Assembly (NCBI GenBank): GCA_001029675.1
Contig: CP011210.1
Coordinates: 193 to 64,192 of the forward strand
Direction of reading: 5' to 3'
DNA length: 64,000 bases
From: Candidatus Beckwithbacteria bacterium GW2011_GWC1_49_16
GTDB lineage: Bacteria; Patescibacteriota; Microgenomatia; UBA1400; CG1-02-47-37
The position numbers and the translations under genes were made by a program. The notes below the pieces were generated by a model that saw nothing but the letters and a program-made list of their open reading frames with translations, was not told where the DNA came from and did no database searches. Numbering within the stretch: position 1 is the first letter of the stretch; every line of letters starts with the position of its first letter. Positions 623 through 63,262 of the stretch are shown piece by piece.

Positions 623-1321
623 TTATTTACCCAAATTCTGCTGCTGTTTGGCGTACCAGTCGAGCACTTTATCAAGCTGCCCGGCGTCAAAGTCGGGGAA
701 TAAGGTGGCGGTAAAGTAGAGCTGGGCGTAGGCGGCTTGGTAAAGCATGAAGCCGGAAAAGCGCGAGTGGCCGCCGGGGCGGATGAGAAGGTCCGGGTCG
801 GGGAGGTCATGGGTGTCGAGGAAATTAGAGAAATTTTCTTCCGAAAATTTCTCTAGTTCGTAGTTCGTAGTTCGTAGTTCGTTGACAAATTTTTTGATGG
901 CGCGCAAGATTTCATCTCTGCCGCCATAGTTGATGGCAATGGTGACGGTAATTTTCTGATTATCTTTTGATTTTTGACGCCAATCTTCCAAAGATTTTTT
1001 GATGTCAGGTGGGAGCTTGGTAAGATCGCCGATTAAATTGAGCTTGGCACCCTTTTTTTGGTACTTGTCGACGTTTTCGTTAAAAAAACTTCGCAGTAAT
1101 TTGAAGTATCTATCGACCCAAGTTTTACCGCGGCGCCAGTTTTCGGTAGAAAAGACCCAGAAAGTAAGATAGGGAATTTTTAAATCAATGCAGCGGTCGA
1201 CCAAAGACTCCATGGTGACGCGGACAGCGTGTTCGTGGCCGGAAAACTCGGGCAAGTTTTTTAGTTTGGCCCAACGGCGGTTGCCGTCGGCGATGATGGC
1301 GATGTGCCGGGGAAGAGTCAT
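623..1321 (-). CDS. uppS: Undecaprenyl diphosphate synthase (cis-prenyltransferase)
   Basis: HIAIIADGNRRWA motif, and the C-terminal RPGG...SGFMLYQAAYAQLYF matches the UppS family. Confidence 0.93.
   Translation of the reverse strand: MTLPRHIAIIADGNRRWAKLKNLPEFSGHEHAVRVTMESLVDRCIDLKIPYLTFWVFSTENWRRGKTWVDRYFKLLRSFFNENVDKYQKKGAKLNLIGDLTKLPPDIKKSLEDWRQKSKDNQKITVTIAINYGGRDEILRAIKKFVNELRTTNYELEKFSEENFSNFLDTHDLPDPDLLIRPGGHSRFSGFMLYQAAYAQLYFTATLFPDFDAGQLDKVLDWYAKQQQNLGK
855..882. repeat. Exact heptad tandem repeat (AGTTCGT)x4 inside uppS; in the coding sense it is (NACGAAC)x4 and encodes NELRTTNYELE
   Basis: Read directly from the sequence at 855-882. Confidence 0.9.
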
Positions 1322-1323
1322 AG

Positions 1324-1659
1324 CTAAAAGATGTTGATGGCCAGGGTGGCCTCAAGCAGCTGGATGATCCAGTAAGAAGCAAAGATGACCAAGAAGCCAA
1401 CTAAGGCATTGACCAGCATACCCTGGCCTTTTTTGATTTTTTCCGGATTGCCGGCAGAGGTAAAAATGGTAAAGCCGCCGGCGACGATCATCCCCAGAAG
1501 AATAATGCCGGCGATGACAAAAACAAAAGGAATAACCAGGTTAATGATTTCTGCTGGGGTGGGTTTGTTGCCAAAATTCCAGCCGGAGCCGAAGATGCTC
1601 GAGTCGCCTTCGTCTATTTGGCCGATTCCTCCGGGGAATTGTAGAGCTAGTTTGGTCAT
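1324..1659 (-). CDS. TrbC/VirB2-like pilin-type small membrane protein (likely true start MTKLALQF...)
   Basis: A 111-aa protein with two hydrophobic helices and the motif FTIFTSAGNPEKIKKGQ, typical of TrbC/VirB2-like pilins. The longer 197-aa version in the ORF track is Arg-rich and unlikely; ATG at 1659. Confidence 0.55.
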   Translation of the reverse strand: MTKLALQFPGGIGQIDEGDSSIFGSGWNFGNKPTPAEIINLVIPFVFVIAGIILLGMIVAGGFTIFTSAGNPEKIKKGQGMLVNALVGFLVIFASYWIIQLLEATLAINIF

Positions 1660-2276
1660 TTGATAAACTCTGGTATTTGGAGGACGTCGACACCGATAAA
1701 GCGGAGAAGAAAAATTGAAAAAACAATGATCAGTAAACCGGAAAGGGCCGAGCCGATGATTTGTTTGCCGTCGTTGATTTTTTCCGGGTTGCCGGCGGCC
1801 AGGATGATGGTAATGCCGCCCCAGAGAGATAGGATGAAGGCAATGCCGCCGCCGGCCAAGATACCCCAGTATAAGAACCACTTGACCAAAGCGGCCGGGT
1901 CGTCTGTCGGGATACAACCTAGAGCGGTGGAAACGCCGTCACCTCCACCGGCCGCAGGACAAGGAGGAGGGGCGGTGCTGGTGCCGGGGGTAGTGCCTCC
2001 GCCGCCGGGAGAGGGGCTCGAGGCAGAACGACAGCCCCAATCACTGGGGTTGGTAATATCTCCCCCGATAAACTGGCAGGAGAAGCCCGAAGAGCAGCCA
2101 CCAGGGCAAGCGCCGCTAGGAGCGGGGGCGGTACACCACGAACATGTATCGCAAAGACCAATGGTACAATCACCAGACATACAGGTTGGAGAACAGGCTG
2201 CAAAAGCCTGCTTGGCAAAAAATAACGGGACAATTAACACCAAGCTACCTAAAAGCAGAGTTAGCAACTTTCTCAT
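1656..2276 (-). CDS. Secreted Cys-rich domain fused to a C-terminal TrbC/VirB2-like pilin domain
   Basis: Signal peptide MRKLLTLLLGSLVLIVPLFFAKQAFA, then a Cys/Gly/Pro-rich region, then AAGNPEKINDGKQ plus a transmembrane helix that is paralogous to the downstream gene. There is an ATGA start/stop overlap. Confidence 0.6.
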   Translation of the reverse strand: MRKLLTLLLGSLVLIVPLFFAKQAFAACSPTCMSGDCTIGLCDTCSWCTAPAPSGACPGGCSSGFSCQFIGGDITNPSDWGCRSASSPSPGGGGTTPGTSTAPPPCPAAGGGDGVSTALGCIPTDDPAALVKWFLYWGILAGGGIAFILSLWGGITIILAAGNPEKINDGKQIIGSALSGLLIIVFSIFLLRFIGVDVLQIPEFIK

Positions 2277-13013: not shown

Positions 13014-13481
13014 ATGAAATCAAAGTCACGACGAGAGTTTTCGGCCGGGGGAGTGGTATACAGGAAACTCGAAGTACGAAACTCGAAGCACGAAACTGTT
13101 TGGTTGGTGTGCAAGCACTCGGGCTATCATCGCTGGGTATTGCCTAAAGGTTTGGTGGAGAAGGGGGAGAGTTTAAAAGACACGGCGGTGCGGGAAGTAG
13201 AGGAGGAGTGTGGCGTTAGAGCCAAAGTAATTGCTAAAATCCCCGAGCCGGAGCGCTACGTTTACACCATGGCTGGGCAAAAAGTGTTTAAGCTGGTGAC
13301 TTATTTTTTGATGGAGTATCAGTCGGGAAACATAAAAGATCACTCGTGGGAGATGGAAGAAGTGGAGTGGTTAGAGTTTGACCAAGCGGTCAAAAGGGTC
13401 GAGTTTAAGGGGGCAAAAGAAGTGTTGGAAAAGGCTAAAAAAATCAGAGACGAGCTGAAGCTAAAACAGAAGTTGATATAA
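13014..13481 (+). CDS. Nudix hydrolase
   Basis: Nudix box GLVEKGESLKDTAVREVEEECGV. The start is taken at the ATG at 13014, just after the tRNA-Arg; the 12987 start in the ORF track overlaps that tRNA. Confidence 0.8.
   Translation: MKSKSRREFSAGGVVYRKLEVRNSKHETVWLVCKHSGYHRWVLPKGLVEKGESLKDTAVREVEEECGVRAKVIAKIPEPERYVYTMAGQKVFKLVTYFLMEYQSGNIKDHSWEMEEVEWLEFDQAVKRVEFKGAKEVLEKAKKIRDELKLKQKLI
13068..13095. repeat. CGAA-heptad x4 element (ctcgaag tacgaaa ctcgaag cacgaaa) in frame in the Nudix gene
   Basis: Read directly from the sequence. It encodes KLEVRNSKHET, which is an insertion relative to the usual Nudix N-terminal strand. Confidence 0.8.
13476..13481 (+). promoter_or_regulatory. Candidate -10 box (TATAAT) upstream of tRNA-Ser(GGA)
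   Basis: TATAAT lies 12 nt upstream of the tRNA start. Confidence 0.3.
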
Positions 13482-39570: not shown

Positions 39571-40124
39571 CAGTGTTAAGTACGAAGCTCGAAGCACGAA
39601 ATTCGAAAGCTGCTTTTAGCCTGATTGAGATTTTGGTGGCCCTGGGCGGGTTGGTGGTGTTGAGCGTTTTGGCGATCTCGTTTTTCTTTTTGACTTTGAC
39701 GCAAAGGGATGAGGCGGTGGCGGAATCTAGCGCTGTGGAGCAGACGGAGGCCGCCTTTGCCTTAGTGGGCAGGGCGGTGAGGGCGGCTCAAACCATCACG
39801 GTATCAGAGGCGGGGACGAGGTTGGAGTTAACCGGCGCCAGCGAGTGCTGGTTGTTTGATTGGGACGAAATCAATGGAGAATTAAAGTACGGCCGGACGC
39901 AAGGATCAAGCTGCAGCTTGCCGGCTGGAGCAGACGAGCGGGTGACCAGCCAGACGGCAGAAATAGAAAACGTCAGTTTCAGCTTGCTGGCGCCGGATGA
40001 TTCAAGTCGGAGCATAGAAATGACCTTAGGGGTGGCGGTTTTCCGCCCCTTGGCTTCGAGTCAACAAACGTTTTCTCAAGTGTTTGTCAATGTGGTTGAT
40101 GAGAGGGGAGAGGAAGATGATTAA
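39561..40124 (+). CDS. Prepilin-type minor pilin with extended leader containing the CGAA-heptad element
   Basis: The leader STKLEARNSKAA is followed by FSLIEILVAL. The start codon is uncertain (ATG at 39561, or GTG at 39573). Confidence 0.6.
   Translation: MEVTVLSTKLEARNSKAAFSLIEILVALGGLVVLSVLAISFFFLTLTQRDEAVAESSAVEQTEAAFALVGRAVRAAQTITVSEAGTRLELTGASECWLFDWDEINGELKYGRTQGSSCSLPAGADERVTSQTAEIENVSFSLLAPDDSSRSIEMTLGVAVFRPLASSQQTFSQVFVNVVDERGEEDD
39581..39608. repeat. CGAA-heptad x4 element (tacgaag ctcgaag cacgaaa ttcgaaa) in the pilin leader
   Basis: Read directly from the sequence. Confidence 0.8.
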
Positions 40125-48980: not shown

Positions 48981-49370
48981 ATGTTGGTATCGGTTTTTGG
49001 CAACCCGGATTTAAAGGAAGATAGTTTGGTGGTGGGGTTGGTGCCGCAATTGCGCCGCCAGTTTCCTGGTGTTGAGTTTCGCATTGAGGATCCAAGCGAG
49101 GGACTGGCGCCACCCGAAGATGATTTGTGGGTGATTGTGGATGTGGCCGGTGGCATCGATGGGGTCAAAGTGCTTGACGACTTGGAGAGGCTTGACAGTC
49201 TGCGGCGGGCCAGCGTTCATGATTATGATTTGGCGATGGAGTTAAAGTTGTTGGCAAAACTGGGCAGGCTCAAAAAGTTTAAGATCATCGCCGTGCCTGT
49301 AGGAATGAGACAAAATGCTGCCCTGCAGGGAATTATAAAGGTTTTACAAGAAATTTCTAATTCCAGTTAA
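48981..49370 (+). CDS. Hydrogenase maturation endopeptidase (HycI/HybD family)
   Basis: MLVSVFGNPDLKEDSLVVGL...DDLWVIVDVAGGID is the family pattern. Confidence 0.7.
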   Translation: MLVSVFGNPDLKEDSLVVGLVPQLRRQFPGVEFRIEDPSEGLAPPEDDLWVIVDVAGGIDGVKVLDDLERLDSLRRASVHDYDLAMELKLLAKLGRLKKFKIIAVPVGMRQNAALQGIIKVLQEISNSS

Positions 49371-50697
49371 TTTTCAAAAAGTGGCTGGCGCAGGACATGC
49401 AGGGGTCATAGGCGCGGATTAAGACTTCCATGTCGTGGGTGAGTTCTTGTTTTAATTCCACTCCGGGAGAGTCCATTCGGCCACTCCCGGAGTGTTTTTT
49501 CCCGGTGTGTTGTTGGAGTTTCCGGTTGACAAGGATTTTAAGGTCGTTTTCGATGTTTAATTGATTTTGGCCGGTGGGGACTAAGATTTCTGCGTCTTTG
49601 ACCACATTGTCTTCAATCGTCAGGCGGTGATAAAGAATACCCCGGGGGGCCTCGATGACGCCAAAGCCGGTACCCGAAATGACGGCAGGTTTAACCGGCG
49701 GTTCGGGGTTAAAACTGGTAGAAGATAAGATGGCAATAGAGTCGTCGATGGCATTTAAGATCTCGATGGCTTGGGCCAGGTTGTTGTGGTAGAGATTGTC
49801 GGAGGGGAATTTTTGTAAAGCCTGCGCGGCGTCTTTTTGGGTTTGGGGGTTTAAGGAGGCCTTATTGAGATTGAGTCGGGCCAAGGCGCCGGTCATGTAG
49901 AACCCCTTTTTGTAGGTGTAGGCAGAGGCGTGGGAGTAGGGCAGGTCGACTCGATTAAGTTGGCCGCGGTAGTCTTCGCTGGGAATGTTGATGCCGTCGG
50001 TAGAGACTATTTGGCCGGCAAGGAACGAGTAATTTTCTCCCCTTAAAGCCAGATAGGGGATGTGTTGGGTTTGATTTAGGGGGGCTTTGAGAAAAGTGTC
50101 GATGAGGTTGAGGACGGCCGGGCGGACGGCGGTAAGTTTGGCTATAATTTCTTTTTGTTTTTCCGGGTCAGGGAATTTTAAAAAGCCGCCGACGGTGGGA
50201 TAGGGGGCGTGAACGCTTCTGCCGCCGGTGAGAATAGACAGGTTGTTGCCGGCGTCTTTGACGGCAAAGGCGTCGTGCAAGAGTTGGTGCTGGCGGGGGT
50301 CTTGGTCGTCAAAATCTAGGAGTGAATCTTTTTGGAAGAGGTCGGGGAGGACGAAGATGTAAAGATGGAGGGCATGGTCTCGAATAATCAAACCATTTAC
50401 CACCAGGCGGCGCAAGATTAAGGTTTGAGGCGAGGGAGTAATTTTGAAAGCGTTTTCGACGGCTTTGATGGCAGCCAGAATGTGGGCATTACTACAGGTG
50501 CCGCAGATTCTGGCCAAAAGCGTCGGTGCGGCCAGCGCCGCTTTGCCGCGGATGGCTTGGGTGTAAAATCTTTTGTATTCGGTGATTTTGAAGTTTAATT
50601 TTTCGACTTGGCCGTTTCTGATGGTGAGGTCCAGGCCGGCACCGCCTTCGATTTTGCTGATTTCTTCTAAAGAGAGATCGAGGTTAATTTGGTGCAT
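49357..50697 (-). CDS. [NiFe]-hydrogenase large (catalytic) subunit, group 3-like
   Basis: N-terminal RICGTCSNAH and C-terminal DPCMSCASH, which are the Ni-Fe ligand motifs. Confidence 0.88.
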   Translation of the reverse strand: MHQINLDLSLEEISKIEGGAGLDLTIRNGQVEKLNFKITEYKRFYTQAIRGKAALAAPTLLARICGTCSNAHILAAIKAVENAFKITPSPQTLILRRLVVNGLIIRDHALHLYIFVLPDLFQKDSLLDFDDQDPRQHQLLHDAFAVKDAGNNLSILTGGRSVHAPYPTVGGFLKFPDPEKQKEIIAKLTAVRPAVLNLIDTFLKAPLNQTQHIPYLALRGENYSFLAGQIVSTDGINIPSEDYRGQLNRVDLPYSHASAYTYKKGFYMTGALARLNLNKASLNPQTQKDAAQALQKFPSDNLYHNNLAQAIEILNAIDDSIAILSSTSFNPEPPVKPAVISGTGFGVIEAPRGILYHRLTIEDNVVKDAEILVPTGQNQLNIENDLKILVNRKLQQHTGKKHSGSGRMDSPGVELKQELTHDMEVLIRAYDPCMSCASHFLKINWN

Positions 50698-55690: not shown

Positions 55691-56440
55691 ATGTTGGTGA
55701 TCGAAAATCTCAAGGTTAAGGCAGAGGGCAAACTGATTCTTAGCGGGGTGAACCTGACGATTAAACCGGGTGAGGTGGTGGCAGTGATGGGGCCGAACGG
55801 GTCGGGTAAGAGCACGCTGGCGTATAGTTTGGCGGGGCACCCTAACTATACAGTAGTAAATTCGAAGCACGAAGCACGAAATCCGAAAGCGTTTTTGAAC
55901 GGGAAGAATCTGTTAAAGATGAGTCCGGACGAGCGGGCCAAGGCCGGGTTGTTTTTGGCCTTTCAGTATCCGGTGGGGGTGGCAGGGGTGACTTTAAACA
56001 GTTTTTTGAGGCTAGCTTTCGAACAGGTAAAAGGGAAGAAAATGGCTCCGTTTGAGTTTAGAAAAAAGCTTTTCAAGGCAGCCCGCGAGTTGAAAATTAA
56101 ACAAGAACTTTTGGAGCGATCGGTGAATGAGGGTTTTTCCGGAGGAGAGAAAAAGAAAGCGGAGGTGTTGCAGCTGGCTATCCTTGCTCCCAAGTACGCC
56201 ATTTTAGACGAGACCGATTCTGGTTTGGACATCGACGCTTTGAGACAGGTAGCCGAGGGAGTCAACCGGGTAAGGAATAAAAATCCCAAAATGGGAGTGA
56301 TTTTGATTACTCACTATCAAAGGATTTTAAAATACATTGAGCCTGACCGGGTGGTGGTGATCAAGGCGGGGAAAGTGGTTAAAGAGGGAGGGAGAGAATT
56401 GGTTAACCAGCTGGAGGAGAAAGGCTATGAAGGGATTTAA
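55691..56440 (+). CDS. sufC: Fe-S cluster assembly ATPase SufC
   Basis: Walker [18 protein letters not shown] and LDETDSGLD. It carries a 10-aa insertion [10 protein letters not shown]. Confidence 0.93.
55861..55888. repeat. CGAA-heptad x4 element (ttcgaag cacgaag cacgaaa tccgaaa) inserted in frame in sufC
   Basis: Read directly from the sequence. Confidence 0.85.
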
Positions 56441-61611: not shown

Positions 61612-62273
61612 CCAAACCCCAAGAATTTCTCGGCCGGGTGAGCCGAGTGGAGCTGACAGGCCATTTTAGGTTCTTTAAAGTTAAGCTGGTTGAGCCCAAA
61701 AACTTAGATTTTAGCGCCGGCCAGTTTTTGTCTGTGGCCATCGGCGGCGGCCAGAGGCGGGCTTATTCGATCGCTTCGCCGCCGAGAGATTCGAGACTTG
61801 ATTTGGTGGTGGATTTGTCGCCAGGGAGAGCGGGGTCAAAGTTTATGGCTGGGTTGAAACAGGGGGATGAGATTAGCTTTTTGGCGCCTTTGGGGCGGTT
61901 CGTGGTGGAAAACGAGGCAAAGCTTTTGTTTGTGGCCACGACCTCGGGTATAGCCCCGATAAGAAGCATGGTGCTTGATTTGCTTAATCAAAACGACCCA
62001 AGGTCGACCTATCTTTATTGGTATGTGCGGCAAGCCGATGCTGCGGCGTTTCAGGATTGGGACCGCGAGTTTGAGCAAAAAGTCAAGGCTAGAGTGGGGT
62101 TTTACTACCGGCTGGTTAAAAGCGGCGGGCAAGAGAGTTGGCCTGACGGGGGCAGGAACTTAGAAAAGATAAAAACCTTAGGCGGGGATAAAAACCGGGG
62201 AGTGTATCTTTGCGGCAGTCAAAAGATGCTGGCGGGTTTTCCCCAGAGTCGGGTTCATGTAGAGCGTTTTTGA
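61608..62273 (+). CDS. FNR-family FAD/NAD(P)-binding oxidoreductase (ferredoxin-NAD(P)+ reductase-like)
   Basis: FAD motif RAYSIAS, a GSKFM region and the NAD-binding LFVATTSGIAP. Confidence 0.78.
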   Translation: MTKPQEFLGRVSRVELTGHFRFFKVKLVEPKNLDFSAGQFLSVAIGGGQRRAYSIASPPRDSRLDLVVDLSPGRAGSKFMAGLKQGDEISFLAPLGRFVVENEAKLLFVATTSGIAPIRSMVLDLLNQNDPRSTYLYWYVRQADAAAFQDWDREFEQKVKARVGFYYRLVKSGGQESWPDGGRNLEKIKTLGGDKNRGVYLCGSQKMLAGFPQSRVHVERF

Positions 62274-62296
62274 GCCAACGTGTTATATTGAAGGAC

Positions 62297-62998
62297 ATGC
62301 AAAAGCCCCAACAGTTTACCGGCAAGGTGGCAGAACACATCTTGATCAACAATAAATTTCAGTACCTGCATATTGAGCTGACTCATCCTTTCAGGCTCGA
62401 GTTTGAGGCGGGCCAGTACGTTTCTTTTGCCATCGGCGGGGGAGAAAGAAGGAGTTATTCGATTGCTTCTGAACCGCAGATAGACAGCAGTATCGAGGTT
62501 TGCGTCGACGTTACCCCGGAGGGTAAGGGTTCAAGTTTTTTGAAAAGCTTAAAACCGGGCGATGAGGTTAGCTTTTTGGCGCCTTTGGGAAAGTTTAAGG
62601 TAGAAGACGAGTCCAAGTTGTTGTTTGTGGCAACCGGCTCGGGGATTACGCCGGTGAGAAGCATGATTTTGGATTTACTGGAGTATAAAAAAGACCCAAG
62701 GCAAATCCAGCTTCACTGGGGGTTGCGGCACGTCGATGACATGTTTTGGGTCGAGCACTTTCGCAAATTCCATGAGTACTACGATAACTTTACCTTTCAC
62801 CTGACTTTGAGCCAGCCGCCGGAGCACTGGCCCTTGTGCGCCGGCTATGTGACCGATTGCGTCAGAGACGAGCTGACGTTGGATTCAAGCTGGGGGGTGT
62901 ATCTTTGCGGCAATAAATTTATGATCGATGACGCCACCAAGCTGGTAACCAAAATGGGCGTACCCCCAGAGCAGATTCACACGGAGAAATTCTTTTAA
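62297..62998 (+). CDS. FNR-family FAD/NAD(P)-binding oxidoreductase, tandem paralog
   Basis: RSYSIAS, GKGSSFL, LFVATGSGITP. Start taken at MQKPQQF (62297). Confidence 0.78.
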   Translation: MQKPQQFTGKVAEHILINNKFQYLHIELTHPFRLEFEAGQYVSFAIGGGERRSYSIASEPQIDSSIEVCVDVTPEGKGSSFLKSLKPGDEVSFLAPLGKFKVEDESKLLFVATGSGITPVRSMILDLLEYKKDPRQIQLHWGLRHVDDMFWVEHFRKFHEYYDNFTFHLTLSQPPEHWPLCAGYVTDCVRDELTLDSSWGVYLCGNKFMIDDATKLVTKMGVPPEQIHTEKFF

Positions 62999-63000
62999 TT

Positions 63001-63028
63001 TACAATTTACAATTTACAATTTACAATT
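63001..63028. repeat. Exact heptad tandem repeat (TACAATT)x4 in the intergenic region upstream of the ferredoxin gene
   Basis: Read directly from the sequence; each unit resembles a -10 hexamer (TACAAT). Confidence 0.9.
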
Positions 63029-63034
63029 ACTATC

Positions 63035-63262
63035 ATGGCTAAATACAAGATCAAGATTTTGCGGGATAAGTGTATCGGGGCGGCGTCTTGCGTCGGGTTG
63101 GCGCCGGGAGCGTACCAGCTTGATGACGAAAACATCGCTTATGTGGTATCAGAGGAGGGAGACACACCGGAAAATATTCTCTTGGGGGCGCAGAGTTGTC
63201 CGACCAATGCCATCGAGATTTACGACGCGGAAACTGGTGAAAAGGTGTGGCCCAAGGAATAG
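63035..63262 (+). CDS. Small ferredoxin (single [4Fe-4S]/[3Fe-4S] cluster, Pyrococcus-Fd-like)
   Basis: CIGAASCVGLAP ... AQSCPTNAIEI. Confidence 0.8.
   Translation: MAKYKIKILRDKCIGAASCVGLAPGAYQLDDENIAYVVSEEGDTPENILLGAQSCPTNAIEIYDAETGEKVWPKE

Follow-up and report, generated by a model that had tools for sequence, protein, structure and literature searches.

A four-unit heptad tract inside uppS of a Candidatus Beckwithbacteria genome and its likeness to a family of CGAA-heptad arrays

The closest described counterparts of the repeats reported here are the Rickettsia palindromic elements (RPEs), which, as far as a 2000 study is recounted in PMC10969869, form a dispersed family in a small, gene-dense genome, with many copies that lie in frame inside housekeeping genes of unrelated function and lengthen the protein by a short hydrophilic peptide where its fold allows this. 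Here we describe a perfect tandem repeat of four heptads, (AGTTCGT)x4 on the plus strand (855..882), inside the minus-strand gene for undecaprenyl-diphosphate synthase (uppS) of Candidatus Beckwithbacteria bacterium GW2011_GWC1_49_16. The DNA analysed, called the window throughout, is a stretch of 64,000 nucleotides (contig CP011210.1, positions 193 to 64,192). In the coding sense the repeat is a run of heptads that each contain CGAA, and it has relatives that share the features of RPEs named above: CGAA arrays are dispersed and in frame in the unrelated housekeeping genes for SufC (+7 aa), a Nudix hydrolase (~+8 aa), mevalonate kinase, a prepilin leader and UppS, and elsewhere in those for RecJ, transketolase, ThiL and UvrC. 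RPEs are palindromes of ~100-150 bp with a conserved encoded peptide, whereas the CGAA arrays are solo, 28-33 nt long, composed of four heptads and translated in any of the three frames. The uppS array has neither a palindromic body or terminal inverted repeats, nor a length of ~100-150 bp, nor an evident target-site duplication, as an RPE-like element or a miniature inverted-repeat transposable element (MITE) would have. Moreover, the palindromic form of the CGAA element was seen in other phyla only, the host lineage belongs to the Candidate Phyla Radiation (CPR)/Patescibacteria and not to Rickettsia, and the two systems are set against each other by description, no likeness in sequence being expected.

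Heptanucleotide repeats offer a second comparison. The cyanobacterial short tandemly repeated repetitive (STRR) sequences, GGGAATC of Xanthomonas and GGGGAYT of Nostoc are repeats of this kind (PMC4692102), as are the TAACTGA repeats of Beggiatoaceae, Cyanobacteria and Bacteroidetes (PMC4679880). Like the CGAA arrays they have a 7-nt unit, occur in tandem sets of 2-6+ copies and in inverted pairs, and show a patchy cross-phylum distribution that suggests horizontal spread. The repeats of these two reports are overwhelmingly intergenic and built from units other than NNNCGAA, and TAACTGA in its forward orientation carries stop codons; the CGAA arrays, in contrast, are fixed at four units, vary in the first three bases of the unit and lie in frame inside conserved enzymes. 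Repetitive extragenic palindromes (REPs) and REPINs resemble the CGAA element as it occurs in other phyla, where inverted doublets of ~45-nt arms lie in intergenic gaps, the usual REP/REPIN position. However, the CGAA arms are heptad-periodic and not palindromic themselves, their sequence is conserved across phyla whereas REPs are species-specific, and the copies in the window are solo and intragenic. A further parallel is provided by the mosaic pbp genes of Neisseria and Streptococcus, which reflect short-tract homologous recombination in naturally transformable bacteria. In uppS, too, a ~90-135-nt segment of a housekeeping gene is swapped for a divergent homologous one, with synonymous differences and with flanking single-nucleotide polymorphisms (SNPs) that reassort, but the tract is far shorter than typical mosaic blocks and both uppS alleles carry different small repeats.

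The heptad tract in uppS and its relatives

The tract lies in an open reading frame (ORF) of 232 aa (623..1321, minus strand) of the cis-prenyltransferase / undecaprenyl-diphosphate synthase family (Pfam PF01255 Prenyltransf, E=6.6e-67). The best solved relatives of the protein are undecaprenyl-diphosphate synthases (1f75, E=1.1e-48), and it is 100% identical to NCBI Candidatus Beckwithbacteria proteins from several Rifle-aquifer genomes (AKM78762.1 on a 1.05-Mb contig). The gene is essential in model bacteria, from which essentiality is carried over here. The perfect period-7 run extends from 854 to 882 (Tandem Repeats Finder: period 7, 4.1 copies, 100% matches, score 58) and a separate period scan agreed, so that the first-pass annotation, made from the letters alone, was right in placing an exact 7-nt x4 repeat inside a coding sequence and in calling the host gene uppS. 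On the minus strand, the coding sense, its sequence is AAC GAA CTA CGA ACT ACG AAC TAC GAA CTA and encodes NELRTTNYEL (N147-L156, with residues 147-156 of UppS corresponding to 855..882). Parsed as heptads it becomes AA-CGAA-CTA-CGAA-CTA-CGAA-CTA-CGAA-C, with the unit CTACGAA. The units are arranged head to tail, as in long-unit simple-sequence repeats, and the tract of 28-29 nt is not itself palindromic. With the base composition of the window, ~3e-8 perfect period-7 runs of 28 nt are expected in 64 kb [(sum p^2)^21 x 64000].

Arrays of the same type recur in this genome. Three or more CGAA motifs at 7-nt spacing were found at four loci in the window versus 0.005 expected from shuffles, and each of the four had exactly four units. 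All of them lie on the sense strand of the host gene, uppS being the only minus-strand host among the four. The array ACTCGAA GTACGAA ACTCGAA GCACGAA is in frame and sense in a Nudix (Ap4A-hydrolase-like) gene (13064..13102, plus strand; KLEVRNSKHET; E=4.7e-6 with the family profile described below), and the protein is ~8 aa longer at that point than PDB 3i7u. Two further arrays of four CGAA heptads, likewise in frame and sense, are found in the leader of a prepilin-like protein (39577..39615, plus strand; STKLEARNSKAAFSLIEILVAL; profile E=9.2e-7) and in sufC (55857..55895, plus strand; profile E=8.9e-9), where the array is an exact 7-aa (21-nt) insertion compared to solved SufC structures and the closest orthologs (242 aa). 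Just outside the window, the mevalonate-kinase gene carries a perfect (ACTCGAA)x4 in sense orientation (L001:13594-13631, minus strand; KLETRNSKLET; profile E=1.4e-7), with no net length change relative to distant solved homologs. Counting uppS, this makes five CGAA x4 arrays in ~73 kb of the genome. Simple-sequence repeats are of local origin and have no related copies elsewhere; for the uppS tract, there are four further CGAA arrays.

When all 256 four-mers were scanned at periods 5-12, four-fold arrays were nearly all of period 7 (~6 position bins, equal to 5 arrays), with a single bin at period 6 and none elsewhere, and CGAA/TTCG was the sole four-mer that recurred at several loci of the window in periodic arrays. 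No partner arm of TTCG heptads was detected elsewhere in the window (counts at the two-unit level), and the window copies are solo arms. The uppS tract continues into CTAGAGAAAT and lacks both the ACAA(A/T) tail and an inverted partner 60-130 nt away. Read in the sense direction, the frames of the arrays contain 17% hydrophobic/aromatic residues and no stops, compared to 46% and four stops in antisense, and the antisense frames of the uppS unit all contain TAG. The sense-strand bias therefore needs no explanation beyond selection on the encoded peptide. A CAAA-type variant, AACGCAA AACTCAA AACGCAA AACTCAA (NAKLKTQNSK), is present in the C-terminal tail of an extracytoplasmic function (ECF) sigma factor outside the window (L001:18160-18200, minus strand).

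We also scanned one genome per species for (CGAANNN)x3CGAA. The scan returned at least 150 arrays from other phyla, with ordinary microsatellites among the matches listed. An element that recurred among these matches is exemplified by TAAATTCGAAATCCGAAGCACGAAATCCGAAACAAATCC (L020) and TAAATTCGAAGCACGAAGCACGAAATCCGAAACAAT (L095), and the latter is identical over 31 nt to the sufC array of the window. The element is a palindrome of ~170-200 nt, the arms of which (~45 nt) consist of four CGAA heptads followed by ACAAAT (L020, L021, L023, L053, L070, L074, L095, L102, L149-L155 and others). Contigs labelled Planctomycetota, Omnitrophota, Syntrophia, Thermodesulfobacteriota, Saccharibacteria and Patescibacteria, as well as viral contigs, have nearly the same arm sequence. 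The arms form inverted doublets 60-130 nt apart, located in intergenic gaps (in L070 between convergent open frames) or at the 3' end of a gene, and the same doublets occur on seven IMG/VR contigs with a GC content of 42% to 68%. Every one of the 21 arms collected, which come from Planctomycetota, Omnitrophota, Syntrophia, Saccharibacteria, viral contigs and others, had exactly four CGAA units and then ACAA; the uppS tract, too, comprises exactly four NNNCGAA units in register.

To place the tract relative to this element, an nhmmer profile was used that was built only from the 21 arms of other phyla. It matched the uppS array of another species (L006, see below) with an E-value of 1.7e-8. The uppS tract of the window was found with E=0.11 (8.3 bits), as the fourth-best match in the window and on the correct strand, with the next match at E=9.5. 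As judged by sequence, the sister arrays are clear members of the family and the uppS tract is a marginal one. Its four-unit architecture and strand agree with theirs, and its site is homologous to that of a clear member (L006). The connection to other CGAA-heptad arrays that had been proposed initially was thus confirmed as regards the four loci, the exact number of four units and the uniform sense orientation, but the family profile reaches the uppS tract only marginally.

In-frame arrays elsewhere were recognised in the Pfam-confirmed hosts RecJ (Taylorbacteria), transketolase-like (Saccharibacteria), ThiL (Margulisbacteria) and UvrC (Ignavibacteriales), and copies also lie in the C-terminal tails of RadA and RNase HII. 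Only Pfam-confirmed cases were used, as sorting of the 150 arrays from other phyla into coding and non-coding by the length of the stop-free frame was too noisy in GC-rich genomes. Rfam at gathering thresholds yielded only rRNA matches for 18 element-bearing loci and no family for the element, and in the literature the exact repeat sequences gave only unrelated primer matches, and a separate search on repeats in CPR bacteria gave nothing relevant. Two of the host genes may contain further repeats. The ThiL-like ORF of Margulisbacteria (L079) has a second in-frame element with the peptide KYETRNSCLPAGTAKYETRLRE, the SCLPAGTA part of which would be compatible with a GC-rich palindrome, for instance TGCCTGCCGGCAGGCA, between heptads of the KYETR type (back-translated from the peptide). 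In the RNase HII tail of Saccharibacteria (L095) the heptad array is followed by PAKAGNQNSGFPLSRE, which resembles the translation of another widespread palindromic repeat.

Variation at the uppS site

The segment of UppS that holds the tract is hypervariable among Beckwithbacteria orthologs, with lengths from -26 to +6 columns. It is wholly missing from the 216-aa forms, and in the window it is 7 aa longer than in the plain allele of L008. Heptad arrays are found at the same uppS position in two other species, as a perfect (ATTCGAA)x4 in L006 and as GTACGAA-GTTCGAG-GTACGAA in L148. Both arrays continue into AAATTAAC(Y)GAR, and their unit, reading frame and peptide differ from those in the window. 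Other species carry other small palindromes at this site, e.g. AAGGTCCGACCTT...AAGGTCGGACCTT in L146. Since units, frames and peptides differ in the two species, protein function does not explain the arrays at the uppS site. This speaks against a tract common to uppS orthologs for protein reasons, a result that the first-pass annotation had named as one that would overturn its view.

In an AlphaFold2 model (mean pLDDT, the predicted local distance difference test, of 84), residues 147-156 form the end of helix 134-151 and the next loop, and the confidence dips there to 74. Directly 3' of the tract in the mRNA sense lies a hairpin, AGAGAAAUUUUC-GGAA-GAAAAUUUCUCU (827..854, minus strand), with 12-nt arms and 13 bp in the predicted fold. 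The fold of 800-930 (minus strand) had a z-score of -4.29, none of 200 shuffles was as stable, and the self-inverted match was also detected by blastn. Strong hairpins are predicted at the uppS position in four of six lineages (the window, allele B described below, L006 and L146) and not in L147 and L148. Hairpins at this position would fit small palindromic elements that land at a permissive site.

Alignment to near-clonal contigs revealed that the tract is part of a larger variable segment of 87 nt (821..907, minus strand; allele A). In L001-L004 (protein P0004, 237 aa) an unrelated allele B of 102 nt takes its place. On one side of the swap these contigs match the window over 10,414 bp with a single mismatch (99.99% identity), and on the other side the identity is 99.76% over the next 820 bp. 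The initial description of the locus had overlooked this wholesale replacement, the main local feature. Allele B carries two palindrome copies, ACACTCCCGGAGTGT and CACTCCGGGAGTG. The alleles also differ synonymously in homologous flanking codons (EILRAIKKFV in A vs EIVRAINKLF in B; FSEENFSNF vs ITEQDVQKH) and, 40 nt further on, by a synonymous CTT vs TTA. Such synonymous flank differences are the signature of recombination with a divergent uppS and not of hypermutation. Furthermore, flanking SNPs were found in four combinations (A-A-CTT, G-A-CTT, A-A-TTA and G-B-TTA), which means that the alleles recombine within the population. The swap is local, since L132, a contig with allele B, shows no difference from the window at the Nudix heptad locus (100% identity).

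We looked for a source of the exchanged segments. A silent donor copy of either cassette was absent from the window and the 20-kb loci, where the sole related match was a pair of CACTCCSGGAGTG motifs in a hydrogenase gene. A diversity-generating retroelement, or hypermutation, was rejected as the cause of the swap: the differences affect all base types, are in part synonymous and include a change in length, and no second copy of the cassette was found in the window or the 20-kb loci. A gapped-pattern scan of metagenome contigs (both flanks plus a variable gap) gave no match, though the pattern fits L001-L004; this is a weak negative, the JGI contigs L003/L004 being outside the collection or gaps having been ignored. 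A second metagenome scan, with the 24-nt left flank, returned one unrelated uppS only (L008). The two CACTCCSGGAGTG palindromes, 23 nt apart, are in frame in the gene for a NiFe-hydrogenase large subunit (49455-49500, ORF 49357-50697, minus strand; peptide KKHSGSGRMDSPGVE). The same motif pair makes up uppS allele B in sister strains; it represents a second family of short repeats within genes.

Several assemblies are interrupted in the variable segment: L141 has an N-run and a duplicated flank, L137 an NN gap, and L145 a contig end. In LCNT01000008.1 (L005/L140, GCA_001001955.1, GW2011_GWB1_47_15), 204 nt of uppS are missing in frame (window equivalent 789-991), the gene is annotated as a 164-aa 'isoprenyl transferase' and the deletion junction has a TCT microhomology. 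The breaks and the 204-nt loss are probably artefacts of the co-assembly of alleles A and B.

Next to this exchange of alleles, the number of units in the tract itself was constant. Ten loci were gathered via the exact protein of the neighbouring pilin-like gene and aligned. The 4-copy heptad allele was present in five assemblies (the window, L138, L139, L143 and L144), and the identical UppS protein is encoded on 10 contigs, the longest of 1,049,888 bp. Tracts of three, five or seven units were not seen at the ten loci inspected, a near-identical UppS of 225 or 239 aa was not among the homologs found, and a look-up of protein clusters, which contain one member each, gave no length variant of allele A. 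Strain-to-strain variation in copy number, as expected of simple-sequence repeats and contingency loci, was not observed at uppS and was seen only at sufC. In L131 (ena:ERZ27254739:k141_200298; window equivalent 55863-55876) one unit of the sufC array (CGAAGCA, 7 nt) is deleted, which splits sufC into ORFs of 66 aa and 173 aa; the other 4.4 kb are identical to the window. This deletion may represent a real subpopulation, a dead-end mutant or an error. The shift of frame that had been anticipated for a change of one unit is on record at a sister array. The word microsatellite, used initially for the tract, is apt in that the repeat is tandem and perfect, but it is not a free-running one, as no copy-number variant was found and the number of four units is fixed in the family.

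Explanations for the tract

What is the origin of the tract? On balance it is probably, though far from certainly, a diverged and internally homogenised solo arm of a four-heptad (NNNCGAA) element, that is, selfish or neutral DNA held at four units by selection against frameshifts, in a permissive segment of UppS with at least two recombining alleles. In many phyla, the element forms the two arms of a ~170-200-nt intergenic palindrome, where REP-like or MITE-like repeats usually sit, and in the gene-dense Beckwithbacteria genome single arms would persist inside genes. Persistence may depend on three conditions: a net length that preserves the reading frame, a CGAA strand that coincides with the sense strand and gives stop-free, hydrophilic E/R/K/N/S/T peptides, and a permissive host segment, which in UppS would be the end of predicted helix 134-151 and the following loop. 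The copy number in uppS would stay at four because changes of one or two units frameshift a presumed essential gene and the variants would be purged. Segment 821-907 would be one of at least two alleles in the population, shuffled by short-tract homologous recombination, with crossovers presumably in the conserved coding flanks NYGGRDEI and LDTHDLPDPD.

Several points weigh against this explanation. UppS of the window aligns end to end and without gaps across the tract with the solved structures 1f75 and 6acs, and as the tract adds no length relative to these, an insertion is not demonstrable at uppS. The profile match is marginal, and the unit CTACGAA differs from the common ATYCGAA or GCACGAA. 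The constancy of four units in other phyla is partly a matter of ascertainment, since at least four were demanded in the scan, although longer arms were detectable and none was found. Many of the cross-phylum matches come from metagenome bins and short contigs, and their taxonomic labels may be wrong. The sense-strand bias is based on only 5-6 loci in this genome, and the recurrence of strong hairpins at one uppS position, in four lineages out of six, might reflect a selected structure. Finally, neither a transposase nor a target-site duplication nor any other means of spread was identified (no search aimed at a REP-associated tyrosine (RAYT) transposase was made), and a flanking direct repeat at the uppS tract is not evident in the sequence.

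A bolder proposal goes beyond the solo-arm explanation, and we offer it tentatively. The tract would be a solo arm of an undescribed cross-phylum heptad palindrome (arms ~TAAATYCGAA-NNN-CGAA-NNN-CGAA-NNN-CGAA-ACAAAT, always four units) that colonises essential CPR genes in frame, as RPEs do in Rickettsia. The helix-loop of uppS would be a hot spot where CGAA heptads, CACTCCSGGAGTG and AAGGTCSGACCTT palindromes replace one another, and the two or more alleles would be kept as a recombining polymorphism among near-clonal cells. If the number of units is fixed at four, this would point to a specific molecular partner, for example a transposase or a protein that binds nucleic acid.

Of the alternatives to the solo arm, a plain local microsatellite survives best, but it seems unlikely to us. 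Polymerase slippage would have amplified the 7-nt unit on the spot, with no connection to the other CGAA arrays, and the repeat would have been kept because the site is unconstrained. This would account well for a repeat so perfect and homogeneous, the unit of which is unlike those of the other arrays and matches the profile weakly; the window also contains an unrelated AATTTAC x4.6 array (see below), and slippage of a unit is documented at sufC. Heptanucleotide repeats are over-represented in bacteria and have been attributed to polymerase slippage as a hypothesis (Mrazek et al. 2007, as cited in PMC4692102 and PMC4679880). Amplification in place does not predict, however, that the tract has exactly four CGAA units, as do the other arrays of the genome and 21 of 21 cross-phylum arms, or that two other species have arrays at this uppS site, one of which matches the family strongly. 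Stepwise slippage would also have to cross frameshifted intermediates in a presumed essential gene, and no copy-number variants were seen at uppS.

Less probable still is a functional cis-element, i.e. CGAA heptads, with or without the hairpin, that serve as a binding array or structure in DNA or mRNA and are kept because they work. Candidate roles are a target for a cold-shock-type single-strand binder, with one protein on each heptamer, a signal for pausing, processing or termination, and a DNA-uptake or recombination signal. A precedent is the binding of heptamer direct repeats by CspB, to the extent that it is cited in PMC4679880. Function would also be in line with arms that are nearly identical across phyla at a genomic GC of 42% to 68%, with a unit number fixed at four, with arrays that are all on the sense strand, and with stable hairpins predicted at the uppS position in four lineages out of six even though the sequences are unrelated. 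On the other hand, the host genes are functionally unrelated, Rfam gave no match, the array is missing from the closest orthologs of SufC and from many of those of UppS, strains with allele B manage without it, and tolerance of the peptide alone accounts for the sense bias. The DNA-uptake sequences of Neisseria and Haemophilus have a far higher density than the ~5 arrays per 73 kb found here; the uptake idea was rejected on this ground and survives only within the functional explanation.

We consider a contingency switch, where gain and loss of units toggles uppS and sufC in and out of frame within the population, very improbable. It would make use of a unit length that is not a multiple of three in a coding sequence, and one metagenome assembly does have the one-unit sufC deletion with its ORFs of 66 aa and 173 aa. 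Several assemblies break or gap within uppS (L137, L140, L141 and L145), but these breaks are probably explained by the co-occurrence of alleles A and B in the same samples, and four units were present in all five of the allele-A assemblies. Contingency loci reside in surface, host-interaction or restriction-modification genes, whereas the hosts here are housekeeping genes, UppS being a cis-prenyltransferase. Four copies are few for efficient slippage at such loci, and with the tract in the middle of the gene the OFF state would yield a truncated enzyme. An assembly or sequencing artefact, which the first-pass annotation had allowed for, can be set aside almost entirely: although the region is a recurrent assembly breakpoint (N-run, contig end, the 204-nt 'deletion' in LCNT01000008.1), the identical 4-copy allele was obtained from different assemblers and samples, the protein is encoded on 10 contigs including the one of 1.05 Mb, the reading frame is intact and the alignment with solved UppS extends from end to end.

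Genomic setting and implications

The window is asymmetric in base composition, with 31.1% G vs 18.7% C on the plus strand. Nearly all long ORFs inspected are on the plus strand, the few exceptions including uppS and its neighbours at 1-2300. Many small genes for proteins similar to type IV secretion system (T4SS) pilins (PF18895) surround uppS (1324-2276, minus strand), and downstream clusters of at least 6-9 T4SS-pilin-like paralogs in a row are present at every Beckwithbacteria locus fetched (L001, L146, L147 and L148). The isoprenoid pathway adjoining uppS is the mevalonate route in the window species and the methylerythritol phosphate (MEP) route (IspD/E/F/G/H, Dxr) in L146-L148. Apart from the CGAA arrays, the window has a single heptad array, a perfect tandem AATTTAC x4.6 (62997-63028), which fills the gap from an FNR-like ORF (62210-62998) to a ferredoxin ORF (63035-63262). 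From the upstream TAA stop codon it extends to 6 nt short of the ferredoxin ATG, and no Shine-Dalgarno-like sequence is visible there.

By itself, the uppS tract is a modest curiosity, and the interest is carried by the family, the cross-phylum four-unit architecture and the allele swap. We found no description of a conserved four-heptad element of many phyla in Rfam or the searchable literature. The swap provides a concrete case of sub-gene allelic exchange, 87 for 102 nt, in environmental genomes that are otherwise 99.99% identical, and it would also account for recurrent assembly breaks and for mis-annotated uppS in public CPR bins. Since the length of the unit cannot be divided by three, every copy carries a latent risk of a frameshift, and in sufC one was seen. 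If the solo-arm explanation is true, ultra-small CPR genomes tolerate short repeats in core enzymes, among them UppS, SufC, mevalonate kinase and a Nudix hydrolase.

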